From contig VYCW01000051.1 in NCBI GenBank assembly GCA_009843735.1, positions 7,964 through 71,963 on the forward strand: a DNA stretch of 64,000 bases, in the 5' to 3' direction. Shown here one piece after another: positions 5,263 through 35,381 of the stretch. The stretch comes from Acidimicrobiaceae bacterium. Its GTDB lineage: Bacteria > Actinomycetota > Acidimicrobiia > Acidimicrobiales > Aldehydirespiratoraceae. The position numbers and the translations under genes are program-made. The notes below the pieces were generated by a model. The model worked only from the letters and a program-made list of their open reading frames with translations. It had not been told where the DNA came from and did no database searches. Position 1 is the stretch's first letter, and each line of letters starts with the position of its first letter.

Positions 5263-5353
5263 ACACCAGCGGCACCGAAATTGACCCGTCCGTAGCTACC
5301 GTTCGACAGAGCATCCGCGCCGCGGCGCACGGCGAAGGAGAATCGAGGAACCC

Positions 5354-6610
5354 ATGCCCTGGCCCACCGCCGACGAGGCCGTGTTCGACCTGATCCGTCA
5401 GGAGATCCGCCGCCAGAACACGACCATCCAACTCATCGCGTCGGAGAACTTCGCCAGTCCGGCGGTGATGGCCGCCACCGGCTCGGTGTTCACCAACAAG
5501 TACAGCGAGGGCTACCCGGGCCGGCGCTACTACGGCGGCAACATGGTCGCAGACGAGGCTGAGGACCTCGCCCGCCGCAGGGCCTGCGAGCTGTTCGGGG
5601 CCGATCACGCCAACGTGCAGCCCCATGCCGGCGCCATCGCCAACATGGGCGCTTACCAGGCCGTGATCGAGCCGGGCGACACCGTGCTGGGCATGAGCCT
5701 CGACCACGGCGGCCACCTCACCCACGGGTCGCCGGTGAACTTCTCTGGCCTGCAGTACCGGTTCGTGTCCTACGGGGTGACTGCCAGCGACGAGCGCATC
5801 GACATGGACCAGCTGCGTGACCTCGCCCTCGCCGAGCGGCCCAAGCTGATCGTGGCCGGCGCCACGGCCTACCCCCGCCTCATCCACCCCGAGCCCCTTC
5901 GGGAGATAGCCGACGAGTCGGGGGCGCTGCTGATGTTCGACGCGGCCCACATCGCCGGGCTGATCGCGGGCGGCGTCCACCCCAACCCGACCCAGTTCGC
6001 CGACATCGTGACGTTCACCACCCACAAGACCCTGCGCGGCCCCCGGGGCGGAGCCATCACTTGCCGCTCCGACTACGCCAAGGCGGTCGACAAGGCCATG
6101 TTCCCCGGCATCCAGGGCGGTCCGCTCGACCACGCGGTGGCGGCCAAGGCGGCGGCCTTCGCGGAGGCGGCCACCGCGGAGTTCGCCGACTACGCGGCCC
6201 GCATCGTGGAGAACTCCCAGGCCCTGGCCGCCGCGCTGGCCGGGCACGGCTTCCGGCTCGTCTCCGGTGGCACCGACAACCATCTGATGCTGGTGGACCT
6301 GCGGACCTTCGATCCGGACCTCACCGGCAAGGAGGCCCAGGCCACCCTGGACGCGGCCGGGATCAGCCTCAACAAGAACACCGTGCCCGACGACCCCCGG
6401 TCACCCTTCGTCACATCAGGGGTGCGCATCGGCACCCCCGCGGTGACCACCCAGGGCATGGACACCGACGACATGGTCACCATCGCCGATCTCATCTCCA
6501 GGGCGTTGCGCAACCGCTCCGACGCGGCCGCAGTGGCCGCGGTGCGAGCCGACGCGGAGGAGCTGTGCGCGGCCAAGCCGCCCTACCCGGGGTTGGACAC
6601 CGAAGACTAG
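5354..6610 (+). CDS. glyA: Serine hydroxymethyltransferase
   Basis: 418 aa with [15 protein letters not shown] and the PLP-lysine context [14 protein letters not shown]. Confidence 0.95.
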
Positions 6611-28199: not shown

Positions 28200-30422
<2,223 letters not shown>

Positions 30423-30547
30423 GCGCGGGTCCCGCGGCCCTCCGCCACCGTGTCGCATGGGCGATGTAGGTTCAGGCCTGTGACTCCATCGGGCCTGTCC
30501 TCGATGCCGCGTCGCGGCATTGGCCGTGCGTTCCGCCCGGTAAGGCC

Positions 30548-32080
30548 ATGAGCGCCGCGCCGCGGCGGGGAAGCACGGCCACATCCAGTTTCGGCGTGAG
30601 CCGTCGCGAGGGCCATGACGCGTCCGCGTTCTACGAGCGTTTCCCAGTGCCTGAGATCAGCGACGACTCCGACGTAGCCCGCCCGCCGGGGGAGTGGCTC
30701 GACCGCCTGTGGGTGGGCGACGCCCGAAACATGGACGCGAATGGCAATGTGGCCGACAGCTCAGTCGCACTGGTGGTCACCTCACCGCCGTACTTCGCGG
30801 GCAAGGAGTACGAGGAGGCCGTCGGTCAGGGCCACATTCCCGCCGACTACGTGGCCTACGTCGAGATGCTCGAAGCCGTCTTCGCGGAGTGCGTGCGCAA
30901 GCTGGAGCCCGGTGGACGCATAGCCGTCAACGTCGCGAACCTGGGACGACGCCCCTACCGCTCCCTATCGGCCGATGTGATCAGGATCCTCCAGGACCGG
31001 CTGGGCCTGCTGCTGCGGGGCGAGGTCATCTGGCGCAAGGCTCGCGGCGCGGCGGGAAACTGCGCCTGGGGCAGCTTCCAGCGGCCCAGCAACCCGGTGC
31101 TGAGAGACCTCACCGAGCGGGTCGTGGTCGCCTCCAAGGGCCGCTTCGATCGAGCTGTGCCCGCGGCTCAGCGCGCCGCGCTGGGACTGCCCTCGGAAGG
31201 GACAGCCCCGGTGGACGAGTTCCTGGAGGCAACCACCGACGTCTGGGAGATTCCGGCCGCCTCGGCCACCCGGGTGGGGCATCCTGCGCCCTTCCCGGTC
31301 GAGCTGCCCCAGCGTCTGATCGACCTCTACACGTACCGTGGCGACCTAGTGCTCGATCCCTTCATGGGCGCCGGAACCACCGCGGTGGCCGCCGTGCGAA
31401 CCGGACGGCGCTACGTCGGTTTCGACACCGACGCCGGCTACATCGCCCTAGCCGAGGAGCGCATCAAGTCCGAACGTGAGCAGCTGGCCCGCCGATCGGA
31501 CATGGAGCGATGGGAGGTGACGGTCGCGCCGAGGGCCAACGGGCGTCAGTCGCGGCTGTTCGACGAGCCGCCCGCACAGCCATCCTCAAAGCGAAACAGT
31601 GCGGCCGCGCCGGTCAATGGCTCCGAATCCGACGCTGACGACAACTTCCAGGCTCGAGCGGTGCGGGAGGGGCGTAAGGCCCAGGAGCTGGCCTGGCAGG
31701 TAATGGCCGAGAGCGGCTTCGACAAGATCCAGAGCCGGGTCTCGCTCGAAGGAGGGGTCGAAGTCAACTACTCGGCGCTGGACCAGAGAGGCCGCCGGTG
31801 GCTATTCGACGTGTCGGGTGCGTTCAGCCTCACCCAGCGCCCCGGGCTGAGGCGCACGGACACGCTGTGGAAGGCGATCGGGCGAGCTGCCGTCCTGCAC
31901 TCGCGGCCCAACCGGGAGCCGCTGGTGCTGCTGACCACCGACCGCCCGGCTCCCAACAGCGCTGGGCAGCGCGCCCTGGATGCCATTACCGGTGACGACA
32001 AGCCGATCCGTGCTGTGATCGAGATGGGCAACCTCGAGGACCTGGAGCGTCTCACCCGCTTCGCGAGCGGCGACGTGTGA
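30548..32080 (+). CDS. Beta-class N4/N6 amino DNA methyltransferase (SPPY type) with a ~170-aa C-terminal domain of unknown function
   Basis: Motif IV VVTSPPYFAGKEYEE precedes motif I VLDPFMGAGTTAVAA, which is the beta permutation. After about residue 330 comes a low-complexity linker, then an extra domain (FQARAVREGRKAQELAWQVMAESGFDKI...WLFDVSGAF...). Confidence 0.85.
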   Translation: MSAAPRRGSTATSSFGVSRREGHDASAFYERFPVPEISDDSDVARPPGEWLDRLWVGDARNMDANGNVADSSVALVVTSPPYFAGKEYEEAVGQGHIPADYVAYVEMLEAVFAECVRKLEPGGRIAVNVANLGRRPYRSLSADVIRILQDRLGLLLRGEVIWRKARGAAGNCAWGSFQRPSNPVLRDLTERVVVASKGRFDRAVPAAQRAALGLPSEGTAPVDEFLEATTDVWEIPAASATRVGHPAPFPVELPQRLIDLYTYRGDLVLDPFMGAGTTAVAAVRTGRRYVGFDTDAGYIALAEERIKSEREQLARRSDMERWEVTVAPRANGRQSRLFDEPPAQPSSKRNSAAAPVNGSESDADDNFQARAVREGRKAQELAWQVMAESGFDKIQSRVSLEGGVEVNYSALDQRGRRWLFDVSGAFSLTQRPGLRRTDTLWKAIGRAAVLHSRPNREPLVLLTTDRPAPNSAGQRALDAITGDDKPIRAVIEMGNLEDLERLTRFASGDV

Positions 32081-32144
32081 GTCCGTGACCGGCGCGCTCG
32101 TCGATCAGGAGCGCAAGCGGTGCGGGTGAGCGCTCCGTTTCTCC

Positions 32145-33209
32145 ATGGCTGACGATCGCACCAAGATCACCGAACTGGCCACCGCCCTGGGAATGACGGG
32201 GCACAACACGCTGCAGGAGGCGCTCGAAGCGCGGCCCGACGTACTCGAGATCGGCTCCGATGACTGGGACGACCTAGCCCGCATAGTTCGCACCGGAAGG
32301 CTGACAGCGGTCGCCGAGACGGCCTTCTCCAACGGCGCCTACTTCGGATCCCACACCGATGGCCTTGCCGGACGGATTCCCCAGCACATCGAGTGGAGCG
32401 GAGGGAGGCGCATTCCCGGTGACAGGCCGGTGCCCGCGGACCTGCTGGTCGATCGGGTGTACATGATCAGCTGCAAGTACCTGTCGAGGATCCTCCACAA
32501 CACGGCGCCCGCCCATGTCTTCCTCGATGGCCTGGTGGCCGCGCCCGGATACCGCGGATTCAACTGGTTTCAAGAGGTGGCGCCGGACGCACACGAAGCC
32601 CTGTATGCCCGGACGGTGGAAGTCCTCGGCCTGGTCCCCATGGCGAAGACCCCTCAGGAACTGACCAGCGAACATCGCAAGAAGCTGAAGGCTGCCTTCA
32701 GAGAGCGAGCTGTGCCGGGACTCCCGGCCGAACTCGATCACCAGTACCAGAGACTCATCGATGAAGTGAGCCACGCGTCGGCTGAGCTGTGGAGGGAACT
32801 TCTCGGTGGTCGGGCGGACCAGGAGCGGATCCTCTGGCGGCTGCTACGCATCTATTCGTCCACGTACTTCATTCTCGGCATCGACCAGCGAAGAACCATG
32901 AGGCTTCGGGTCATCACGCCGTGGGAGTGGCGGCAGTCCTACCAGTTCGTGTCGCTCACGGTCAGAGCGGCCGGCCGGGGCCAGCCCCGGATCGACTGGG
33001 AGGCGACCTACCGTGACCTCGCCGCCGGCCAACGCCGTCGCGTCAGGGGTCATGTCGAGATCCGGTGGAGCCATCGCCCGTTCTGCGAGCCACCCGAGGC
33101 GAAGGTGTACCTCGACACCCCGCACGCGCAGGTGCCGGGCTATCGCCGGCTCGACCACACCGACGAGCCCCCGCCCTACGACCAGCAGAGCCTGATCGAC
33201 TGCCCCTGA
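32145..33209 (+). CDS. Hypothetical protein; possible PD-(D/E)xK-like nuclease partner of the adjacent methyltransferase
   Basis: 354-aa ORF, 64 nt downstream of the MTase on the same strand. I recognise no family. The segment PVPADLLVDRVYMISCKY resembles a PD...(S/E)xK motif variant. The functional call is inference only. Confidence 0.45.
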   Translation: MADDRTKITELATALGMTGHNTLQEALEARPDVLEIGSDDWDDLARIVRTGRLTAVAETAFSNGAYFGSHTDGLAGRIPQHIEWSGGRRIPGDRPVPADLLVDRVYMISCKYLSRILHNTAPAHVFLDGLVAAPGYRGFNWFQEVAPDAHEALYARTVEVLGLVPMAKTPQELTSEHRKKLKAAFRERAVPGLPAELDHQYQRLIDEVSHASAELWRELLGGRADQERILWRLLRIYSSTYFILGIDQRRTMRLRVITPWEWRQSYQFVSLTVRAAGRGQPRIDWEATYRDLAAGQRRRVRGHVEIRWSHRPFCEPPEAKVYLDTPHAQVPGYRRLDHTDEPPPYDQQSLIDCP

Positions 33210-33262: not shown

Positions 33263-33754
33263 CTAGGAGACCTCGAAGCACCAGCGGACGGTGTCGGACT
33301 CGTCGGGACGGGCGATGAGCACGAATCTCGCGATCACGCAGTTCGTGTCCGGCGACAGGGCTTCGATGAGGCGGCCCTCGCCGGGCGCGAACTCGAAGCG
33401 GTTGAGCCCCTCCATGTGCTCGACCTCTGAGGTCACGTCAACCCCCTCGGTGGCATTGTCGCTCGGCAGGATCACCATCGAGGAGAGCCGGTAGCGGGCG
33501 TCCAGGACTACGCCGACCCGCTGCTGCTGGAGCACTTCGTCGCCGGGGTTGGGGATCACCCGGTCCACCGCAGGCCCCGCCGTGACGGCGCGTTCGGATT
33601 CGTCTTCACCCGAGCCGACCAGCGCGGCCACGACGAAGCCCAATATCCCGAACAGCGCGAGCGCGACGATGCCCACTCGTATCCGCCACCCGCTGCGCAG
33701 GCGCGGCGGCGAGGAGTCGGGGCCCTGTCCGTTCGTTGCCATCTCGTGTCGCAC
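33263..33754 (-). CDS. Single-pass membrane-anchored protein, unknown function
   Basis: 163 aa with an N-terminal basic stretch, then the TM helix IRVGIVALALFGILGFVVAALVG, then a beta-rich ectodomain. It is divergent from the pseudokinase. The start may be the M at 33742. Confidence 0.55.
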   Translation of the reverse strand: MRHEMATNGQGPDSSPPRLRSGWRIRVGIVALALFGILGFVVAALVGSGEDESERAVTAGPAVDRVIPNPGDEVLQQQRVGVVLDARYRLSSMVILPSDNATEGVDVTSEVEHMEGLNRFEFAPGEGRLIEALSPDTNCVIARFVLIARPDESDTVRWCFEVS

Positions 33755-33815
33755 AGTACCGGACCCCGGCGACAGCCCCTTGCGTCCCTATCATCGCCAC
33801 GCCGGTACCGTGGCG

Positions 33816-35381
33816 ATGATGGTCACGCCCGCAGAGTCGTTGCGATCCTTCGGCGATCGTTACCGGTTGCTGAAGCTCGTCGGCGAGGGTTCGAGCGCGC
33901 GGGTCTATGTGGCCGAGGATCTCACGCTTCACCGGCGTGTCGCCCTCAAGATCCTGAAGGTGGAGATAGCCGATGACACCAGCTTCCGGGACCGCTTCGC
34001 GGCGGAGATGAGAGCGACGTCGCTGCTGAACCATCCCCGGGTCCTGCCTGTGTACGACTGGGGCCTGGACCCTCAGCCCTACTCCGTCACCGAGTACCTC
34101 ACCGGCGGCAGCCTGGCCATGCTCCTGGACGCCGGGCACCGCCTGACCCCGTCGCAGGCGCTGGTGATGGGATTGGAGGCGGCTCGGGCCCTGGTGAACA
34201 TCCATGCCGGCGGCCGGGCCCATCTGAGTCTCGGGCCGTCCGCCATCCTGTTCGACTCCGGCGCCCGCCCCTACATCTCCGACCTTGGACTGTCGGCGGC
34301 GCTGCTGCCGGCCGCCGCCAGCGACGGCGACGCTCCTGAAGAATCCGAGGAAACCGAGGAGTCCGGGGACGTCTCGCCGGCCGCCGCCGAGACGCCGGAC
34401 GGCGGCGCCGATGACGATGGCGCCCGATCGGCGACCGAGCCGGAGGCGGGCCCGGACGAGCAGGCAGCGGCTGCTCGGAGCTACTCACCGCTGGAGCAGA
34501 CCCAGGACGTGCACGACCTGGCGCTGCTCCTCTGCGAGGCCGTGACCGGCTCCAGGGCCCTGACCGCCGATGACGGCGACGAAGCCTCCATGGCTTCGCT
34601 GACCGCGCTCGGCCCCCTGCAGGCCGTGCTGGCGCGGGCCGCCGCGGCTGAACCCGCCGACCGGCTCAGCGCGGCGGACCTGGCCGAGGAGCTGCTGAGA
34701 GTGGCAAACCTGCTCCCAAGGCCCGATCCGATCCCTGTCCCGTCCGAGTACAGCCCTCCGAGCGCTTCGGCCGCAGCCTCCTACGATCAGACCGAGGACT
34801 TCGCGCAGGTCGGCCCCTCAGTGTCGGAGCGTTCGGCAGTGCCGCTCGACGATGCTCCCCGCCGTCGCTGGCCGGGAATCGTCCTTGCCGCGATCCTGGT
34901 CCTCGGCGGGGCTGCAGCCGGGGTGTGGGCTTTGTTCCTGAGAGGCACCGACAACCCCGCGGTGCCTGAACTGGAAGGCCAGACGCTCGGCGCCGCGACG
35001 TCCGTTGCGGCCGACCTGGGCTGGCAGGTCAACGAGATACTGGTGCGCGAGTCCGGCACCAGCCGCGGACGGGTGGTGCGTACCGAGCCACCCGCCGGTG
35101 GCACCCTCGACGAGGGTGCCACTCTGGACCTGTTCGTGTCGCTGGGCGAGCCACTCATACCGGTGTCGGACCTGCGCTTCCTTTACGGCATGTCGGTCGA
35201 GGAAGCCACCGACGAGCTGGAGTCGCTGGGTCTGAACCCATCGGGGGAGACGCCCGTCAACGATGCCGTCGTGCCGTCGGGACTGGTGGTCGGCCTCGAC
35301 GTGGAGGAGGGCGTCTACGAACTGGAAGTGGGGGCCGAGGTAGACCTGCTGGTGTCGGACGGCCCGTCCGAGGCCGGGTAG
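33816..35381 (+). CDS. PknB-like Ser/Thr protein pseudokinase with a TM helix and two PASTA-like domains
   Basis: The start was trimmed to ATG 33816 (GTG 33810 is also possible). The G-loop GEGSSARV, VALKIL Lys and alphaC Glu are retained. The catalytic loop reads HLSLGPSA (34221-34244) instead of HRDxKPxN, and DFG is DLG. The C-terminus has WPGIVLAAILVLGGAAAGVWALFL followed by 2 PASTA-like repeats. Confidence 0.85.
   Translation: MMVTPAESLRSFGDRYRLLKLVGEGSSARVYVAEDLTLHRRVALKILKVEIADDTSFRDRFAAEMRATSLLNHPRVLPVYDWGLDPQPYSVTEYLTGGSLAMLLDAGHRLTPSQALVMGLEAARALVNIHAGGRAHLSLGPSAILFDSGARPYISDLGLSAALLPAAASDGDAPEESEETEESGDVSPAAAETPDGGADDDGARSATEPEAGPDEQAAAARSYSPLEQTQDVHDLALLLCEAVTGSRALTADDGDEASMASLTALGPLQAVLARAAAAEPADRLSAADLAEELLRVANLLPRPDPIPVPSEYSPPSASAAASYDQTEDFAQVGPSVSERSAVPLDDAPRRRWPGIVLAAILVLGGAAAGVWALFLRGTDNPAVPELEGQTLGAATSVAADLGWQVNEILVRESGTSRGRVVRTEPPAGGTLDEGATLDLFVSLGEPLIPVSDLRFLYGMSVEEATDELESLGLNPSGETPVNDAVVPSGLVVGLDVEEGVYELEVGAEVDLLVSDGPSEAG

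Follow-up and report, generated by a model that had tools for sequence, protein, structure and literature searches.

PvuII and BamHI are type II restriction-modification (R-M) systems with a beta-class N4-cytosine methyltransferase, and they serve here as the reference for the restriction endonuclease (REase) and for the gene organisation of such systems. Heterodimeric or subunit-sharing restriction enzymes and pseudo-nuclease partners are also known, an example being the BbvCI-type two-subunit enzymes. Here we analyse a two-gene locus in a 64,000-nucleotide (nt) stretch of DNA from Acidimicrobiaceae bacterium (contig VYCW01000051.1; the whole stretch is hereafter called the window). The locus encodes a 510-amino-acid (aa) methyltransferase, M (30548..32080, + strand), and, after a 64-nt spacer (32081-32144), the product of a 354-aa open reading frame (ORF), X (32145..33209, + strand). 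The coordinates, ORF lengths, spacing and motifs which an initial annotation, made from the window alone, had quoted for this pair all check out. The best explanation, to which we give about an even chance of being right, is that M and X form an R-M-like module in which a conserved methyltransferase, probably of the N4-methylcytosine (m4C) type, is combined with interchangeable nuclease partners, and that the window carries the M-X variant of this module.

As in the PvuII- and BamHI-type systems, an SPPY/SPPF beta-class amino-methyltransferase adjoins a gene of similar size with a PD...xK-type motif, and the gene order is variable. As in such systems, the pair sits in a chromosomal slot of variable content, where a relative has a different R-M system. 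However, X falls in no described REase family and M bears an extra pseudo-nuclease domain. Both genes also persist singly under selection, the family is nearly confined to one bacterial class, and searches of plasmids and phages did not turn up X.

In its overall plan M is also comparable to CcrM, with which it shares a beta-class core followed by a linker and a C-terminal domain of ~90-150 aa, as well as conservation across a whole lineage. However, CcrM's C-terminal DNA-binding domain is SAND-like, with six antiparallel strands (PMC6787082), whereas the C-terminal domain of M (C-dom) is predicted to have a PD-(D/E)xK fold, which rules it out as a CcrM-like domain. M also carries SPPY in place of the DPPY of CcrM, an adenine enzyme with GANTC specificity. 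The sequence similarity between the two is confined to the core: the CcrM NCBIfam model matches only this part of M, at 51.9 bits against a cut-off of 830.

The methyltransferase M

M is a beta-class N6/N4 amino-methyltransferase. Its catalytic region (residues 1-320, 30548..31507, + strand) is defined by matches to PF01555, to the PADLOC MTase_II model and to PDB entries. The Pfam family N6_N4_Mtase (PF01555) covers residues 73-304 with E = 3.2e-36 and 125.8 bits (cut-off 26.7), and PADLOC MTase_II PDLC03350 matches at E = 1.1e-83. Motif IV, VVTSPPYFAG (residues 76-85, with SPPY at 79-82), precedes the motif I region DPFMGAGTTAVAA (residues 270-282), in which DPFMGAGTT occupies 270-278 and FxGxG 272-276. 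This order, together with a PF01555 score above the curated threshold, bears out the beta-class assignment made in the initial annotation. The best solved relative of M is TTHA0409 (2zie, 1.4e-35), followed by the N4-cytosine enzymes 8s9m and M.PvuII (1boo) and by adenine enzymes. In solved N4-cytosine enzymes motif IV takes the form SPPY, while CcrM carries DPPY (PMC10406627); the earlier remark that SPPY is more typical of N4-cytosine than of N6-adenine enzymes agrees with this and with the matches to 8s9m and 1boo. SPPY, as the one indication of the target base, suggests that M methylates N4-cytosine. The search for a target motif by under-representation of palindromes in the 64-kb window gave no clear-cut candidate, the ratios of observed to expected counts being 0.30 for CACGTG, 0.35 for CGCGCG, 0.45 for TCGCGA, 0.52 for CAGCTG and 0.87 for CGCG.

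The catalytic region is followed by a linker (residues 321-364, 31508..31639, + strand), which is Ser/Pro/Ala-rich as described before, poorly conserved and gapped in alignments. The ratio of nonsynonymous to synonymous substitution rates (dN/dS) for the last ~40 core residues plus the linker is 0.42-0.53, as against 0.09-0.16 for the C-dom.

The C-terminal domain of M

The C-dom spans residues 365-510 (31640..32077, + strand), as judged from an AlphaFold2 (AF2) model, Foldseek matches and hhalign alignment to a free-standing protein, B, described below. The presence of an extra domain after the catalytic core, proposed in the initial annotation, is confirmed by 220 homologues and by a dN/dS of 0.13-0.16 for the domain. 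The AF2 model, built with 119 homologues, has a predicted local distance difference test (pLDDT) score of 86.4 and an alpha-beta-beta-beta-alpha-beta topology (H3-25, E28-36, E40-47, E53-59, H73-87, E95-99). Taken singly, the matches from Foldseek comparison with the PDB are weak (E = 1e-3 to 0.3), but nearly all of them are PD-(D/E)xK nucleases. They include SfsA (probability 1.00), Card1 (template modelling (TM) score 0.53), SPO1766, EcoO109I, NucS/EndoMS and MspJI, and further McrC, Cdn1, BstEII, BsoBI and Hjc. A PD-(D/E)xK (restriction-endonuclease-like) fold for the C-dom is therefore supported by the model.

The site itself is degenerate (GVEVN ... LFDVSG): on beta-3 a D-V-S (D-x-S) replaces (D/E)-x-K and the beta-2 Glu is variable. 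Because the catalytic Lys is missing, the C-dom is probably not an active nuclease. Of the earlier guess of a restriction-endonuclease-like domain, the fold thus stands but an intact active site does not. The most conserved segment of the C-dom, RPGLRRTDTLWKA, forms a low-confidence loop plus a helix in the model. In two relatives of the window (loci L005 and L007; numbers with L or P denote loci fetched for this study) the methyltransferase part has decayed while the C-dom remains as a free ORF, with a dN/dS of 0.09 against ~0.5 for the decayed part. The low dN/dS of the domain, in M and still more as a free ORF, argues that it is functional in its own right.

The partner protein X

Homologues of X number more than 2000, all labelled hypothetical, and there are 651 cluster representatives at 50% identity. 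The protein had been described as unclassifiable, and our searches agree with this. Pfam assigns no family to X homologues and yields scattered weak matches only, with a few helix-turn-helix (HTH) entries at E ~0.1, and NCBIfam gives nothing over 116 X homologues. The sole recurrent profile match of X is PADLOC REase_II PDLC03456, which covers residues 229-325 and is found for 99 of the 116 members (best E = 2.5e-5); the match of the window protein is weak (E = 0.014). Profile and single-sequence searches of X, and likewise of B, against PDB sequences returned noise only, and Foldseek comparison of the X model with the viral library BFVD found three uncharacterised viral proteins and nothing else.

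The AF2 model of X is confident (pLDDT 89.3, predicted TM score 0.86) and has four parts. Residues 1-70 form four helices with an HTH-like arrangement and a TVTELATALG motif. They are followed at residues ~80-126 by a small beta-meander (strands 82-84, 100-102, 106-109 and 116-120), which carries E83, P97-x-D99 and S109-C-K111. Residues 141-233 are helical, and residues 241-335 form a beta-sheet domain with E305, R307, H310 and E318-A-K320. Conservation was assessed over 62 divergent representatives, 26-46% identical to the window protein, so that counts are out of 63. D99 and P122, the most conserved, are kept in 62 of these sequences each, P97 in 60 and R307 in 59, and S109 and K111 are each kept in 57 and E318 and K320 each in 54. 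The dN/dS of X is 0.08-0.35.

The motif region of X, PVPADLLVDRVYMISCKY, lies at residues 95-112. In the model D99 is located just before beta-2 (100-102), S109 ends beta-3 (106-109) and K111 follows two residues on. A conserved D ... (D/E/S)-x-K, as required of a PD-(D/E)xK motif, is thus predicted on a beta-2/beta-3 hairpin, and the placement of P-x-D99 ... S109-x-K111 would correspond to the canonical PD-(D/E)xK geometry.

An R-x-D-R-type recognition motif is typical of the Cfr10I/NgoMIV family, to which the initial annotation had likened X. X does resemble these enzymes in having S-x-K in place of (D/E)-x-K after the catalytic Asp, and the PxD...SxK pattern proves to be near-invariant. However, the spacing from the Asp to SxK is 10 residues in X, which we count as a difference. 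The R-x-D-R-type motif is not conserved either, since position 115 (Arg in the window, at K111+4) varies among homologues. Cfr10I/NgoMIV chains were retrieved neither by the PDB profile search nor by Foldseek of X, and the proposed relationship to this family is not upheld.

Alternative partners of M

Loci in which M occurs without X carry two other conserved, unannotated genes, which we call A and B. Protein A (~105-130 aa) belongs to no known family; 13 loci also have its gene inserted between those of M and X, and P0154 has it fused to the C-dom. Protein B (~140 aa), for which there are at least 905 homologues, every one annotated as hypothetical, shows a canonical GVE(V/I)D ... WFE(Y/F)KGS pattern, in which E-x-D ... 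E-x-K is invariant in 24 sequences. B is a paralogue of the C-dom (hhalign probability 99%, E = 2e-18), while X is by the same method unrelated to the C-dom, to A and to a 490-aa protein of L005. A PADLOC scan of A, B and the C-dom gave no match. Examples of A and B genes, which are absent from the window, are found at L104:4451-5247, L128:4444-5186 and L002:7655-8008.

A census of gene architecture in 168 loci gives 64 of the M-X type, 25 of the M-A-B type (plus partial versions), 17 with M alone, 16 with X alone, 13 M-A-X, 9 M-A and 2 M-B. B and X were never found in one locus among these 168. B takes the same position as X and bears the canonical E-x-K nuclease motif, and the partners alternate: X in some loci, A and B in others. 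M-A-B appears to be an undescribed module.

The M proteins of all these settings make up a single orthologous family. Across the class they are on average 67-75% identical in pairs, whichever partner gene is present; the identity is 67% between M of M-X loci and M of M-A-B loci, and 69% within M-X loci. The central target-recognition region is equally conserved between and within partner types. This likeness in overall identity and in the target-recognition region suggests a single shared specificity.

The M-A-B operon is reminiscent of BbvCI-type enzymes, as a small PD-(D/E)xK protein predicted to be active (B) is encoded together with a degenerate paralogue (the C-dom), and the sequences suggest an asymmetric nuclease-pseudonuclease pair. 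It differs from them in that the methyltransferase itself bears the degenerate copy as a fusion; the window variant, moreover, has X and no B.

Linkage of M and X and turnover at the ligA slot

X is present in at least 517 species in a GTDB scan with one genome per species. The best 80 loci were retrieved, nearly all of them from Acidimicrobiia. Two cultured strains are among the carriers, Salinilacustrithrix flava EGI L10123 (L028) and Acidiferrimicrobium sp. IK (L034). M is adjacent to X in 66 of the 80 species loci, so that the pairing seen in the window holds across species, and in 64 an M with its C-dom lies directly upstream of X on the same strand. In L067 and L072 the C-dom is missing from M, and in L072 this M stands downstream of X; in L007 the two genes are divergently oriented. 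Three gene orders are therefore seen (tandem M-X, divergent, and X before M). Several unrelated genomic contexts contain the module, with at least four flank groups and, besides these, singletons. Identity among loci is 44-60% for X and 60-80% for M. X thus evolves faster than M, which is the usual pattern of restriction enzymes and speaks for an R-M-like module.

In the window the pair follows ligA (28311-30422), and the same slot can be compared in close relatives. The flanking genes of L007 are 92-98% identical to those of the window, whereas X is 67% and M 77% identical and M is inverted. This region (L007:2375-6065) contains the remnant of an older M plus an inverted, divergent M-X allele. 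The same slot in L005 (L005:6001-10855) contains a complete NspV-type R-M system (REase PDLC03454 at 1.2e-74, methyltransferase PDLC03310 at 3.7e-112), a solitary M and a remnant C-dom ORF, and no X. The allele swap in L007 and the NspV-type system in L005 show that the slot after ligA behaves as a variable R-M hotspot, with gene turnover of the kind that R-M or defence loci are expected to show.

Surroundings of the M-X pair in the window

The gene order in the window is ligA, M, X, a convergent ORF for a 163-aa membrane-anchored protein (orf163), a PASTA Ser/Thr kinase gene and gatCAB. The 'synteny gap' noted in the initial annotation is correctly placed, with the pair lying between ligA and the orf163-PASTA kinase-gatCAB block. 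Across the M-X locus the window is 98% identical to L006, a metagenome-assembled genome (MAG) labelled Acidimicrobiaceae bacterium SB0665_bin_5. The protein of orf163 (33263-33754, - strand) has a hydrophobic N-terminal segment and no known family, and its gene is kept beside the PASTA kinase gene in L005-L008. The mechanically called kinase ORF (33549-35381, + strand) overlaps orf163. Because the kinase domain begins only at residue 105 of this ORF, the true kinase start is probably near 33810.

Upstream of M, a 43-nt block at 30441..30483 (+ strand), TCCGCCACCGTGTCGCATGGGCGATGTAGGTTCAGGCCTGTGA, stands out by its conservation. It includes a TAGGTT hexamer, and most of its columns are invariant in the window, L006, L001 and L008, including the unbroken core GGGCGATGTAGGTTCA, whereas the flanking intergenic DNA diverges. 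It is possible that this block is a promoter or operator of the M-X operon. A scan for promoter and terminator consensus sequences gave no match, including no sigma-70 consensus at 30441..30483. A perfect 8-nt inverted repeat with two CGCG sites, ATGCCGCG-T-CGCGGCAT, is located at 30504-30520, 28 nt 5' of the M start; the relatives L001 and L008 do not conserve it. No Rfam family or tRNA was found near the module.

The GC content of window positions 32001-33000 is 0.656, and the GC content at third codon positions (GC3) is 0.81 for X as compared with 0.90-0.93 for ligA and gatA. GC3 of both M and X is mildly below that of their neighbours, but the deviation lies inside the range of other window genes.

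Solitary genes and the restriction-modification model

In the mechanism that we propose, M would methylate a fixed DNA motif, with N4-cytosine suggested as the target base by SPPY. X is the candidate effector, which may contact DNA through its HTH-like N-terminal helices and its C-terminal beta domain, and would cut unmodified DNA at the PD-(D/E)xK-type site formed by P-x-D99 and S109-x-K111. In favour of such a module are the linkage of M and X, its mobility and the turnover at the ligA slot, and, on the side of X, the REase_II matches, the conserved motif and a position equivalent to that of B. The C-dom is most likely a dead paralogue of the putative nuclease B, kept for DNA binding or for docking, possibly of X, rather than for cleavage. 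In the sister modules M-A-B, B would stand in for X. Such a module departs from an ordinary R-M pair in the fusion of M to a pseudo-nuclease with a free paralogue (B), in the swapping of partners and in the persistence of solitary genes under selection.

This last feature is the strongest difficulty for an R-M-like module, and several observations that follow weigh against it. X has no M within 5 kb in 14 of the 80 loci. These solitary copies retain all 33 invariant residues and have a dN/dS of 0.08-0.25, as compared with 0.09-0.35 for paired X, and they are scattered over the X tree, where they include a five-species clade. M can be precisely absent with both flanks conserved, as shown by the comparisons of L074 with L071 and of L038 with L032. 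In L086 (MAG RHO2_bin_38) no M was found on an 18.6 kb contig stretch reaching ~7.5 kb 5' and 10 kb 3' of X. M-side sampling of metagenomes gave X in 14 of 49 informative loci and M without X in the other 35, and B also occurs as a solitary gene (L169). An endonuclease of a type II R-M system is not expected to persist without its cognate methyltransferase, yet at the level of the locus X does so. An active restriction enzyme should not survive the loss of M unless a methyltransferase acts in trans. The proposed module would therefore require a methyltransferase acting in trans wherever X or B is solitary, which is plausible given that M seems to have a single specificity throughout the class. 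Of the R-M pair envisaged in the initial annotation, the linkage, the motif and the hotspot are thus retained, but a strict dependence of X on an adjacent M is not.

With regard to L086, its solitary X has in its vicinity a fragment of an IS481-type transposase and a gene for an AAA_14/DUF4143 ATPase (124-678 and 5291-6520), a neighbourhood that hints at local rearrangement. The 127-aa ORF 5' of this X is related neither to A nor to the C-dom.

Structure and distribution add further points against the R-M-like module. When compared with the PDB by Foldseek, the X model had no significant match, either to a solved nuclease or to any other structure. Neither plasmids nor phages gave a match to X in tblastn searches, and X was not found in IMG/VR contigs. 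The near-restriction of the family to one class and the high conservation of M (67-75%) resemble lineage-wide epigenetic methyltransferases. As for the other parts of the module, tblastn of the C-dom against plasmids gave no match and M has one weak match in the plasmid collection.

Alternative explanations

The resemblance to lineage-wide methyltransferases leads to the main alternative, namely that M is an epigenetic enzyme, comparable to Dam or CcrM, and that X, or A plus B, is a methylation-linked housekeeping factor, such as a MutH-like nicking or repair nuclease or a methylation-sensitive DNA binder. We consider this possible, if somewhat unlikely. It would account for the intact solitary X under purifying selection, including its five-species clade, for the frequency of M without X, for the even conservation of M whichever partner it has, and for the spread of X over at least 517 GTDB species, with the best 80 loci almost all in Acidimicrobiia. 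Some loci also adjoin replication and repair genes, namely ligA in the window and RecR and DnaX in L003. In a metaepigenome study, CGCG and BAAAA methylation was detected in all Acidimicrobiia MAGs sampled, and orphan methyltransferases were present (PMC8919816), which fits with such a role, although nothing ties M to either of these motifs. On the other hand, the chromosomal positions of the module are many and varied. At the ligA site alleles have been replaced and decayed copies left behind, beside a true R-M insertion, a pattern typical of selfish or defence genes rather than of a fixed housekeeping gene, and a PADLOC REase model matches X.

A more far-reaching version, which we regard as doubtful, combines both ideas. 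M would be a class-wide epigenetic methyltransferase whose pseudo-nuclease domain recruits interchangeable nucleases (B with A, or X); or X and B would be MutH-like, methyl-directed repair nucleases that give strand discrimination, in a lineage that we assume, to the best of our knowledge, to be without MutS/MutL. A nuclease docked on a methyltransferase would, if true, be a previously undescribed R-M architecture, and either form of this version would explain why solitary X, solitary B and the split-off C-dom are under purifying selection.

It is also conceivable, but quite improbable, that X is no nuclease at all and acts as an HTH-type DNA-binding regulator or accessory protein of M, like an enlarged controller protein, in which the conserved polar residues bind DNA or a ligand. 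The four N-terminal helices with their TVTELATALG-type motif, the weak HTH matches (E ~0.1) of a few X members, the lack of a fold match to solved nucleases and the tolerance of X to loss of M would all agree with this. However, known controller proteins are much smaller than X, which has 354 aa and three further conserved domains, and the strongest conservation of X lies outside the HTH region (P97, D99, S109, K111, R307, E318 and K320). The REase_II profile match at residues 229-325 is consistent among members, and X occupies the same slot as B with its canonical motif. Finally, that M and X adjoin by chance and differ in function without any relation, as the occurrence of each gene without the other might suggest, is effectively refuted by their adjacency in 66 of the 80 species loci with unrelated flanks and in three gene orders, and by the 64 M-X and 13 M-A-X arrangements among the 168 loci.

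Implications for Acidimicrobiia

X, A, B and the C-dom all lack a Pfam family; X is in addition absent from NCBIfam, and it is the only one of the four with a (weak) PADLOC match. Together they make up a modular system that recurs in hundreds of species of Acidimicrobiia. Members of this class, for the most part uncultured, abound in soils, oceans and sponges. Restriction enzymes of new families turn up often. Should X and B prove to be nucleases, as in the R-M-like module favoured here, they would represent such new families, and M would be an unusual case of a methyltransferase that carries, as a fusion, a dead copy of the nuclease partnering it. Should X rather be a housekeeping factor that reads methylation, the module could explain the class-wide methylation reported for Acidimicrobiia.

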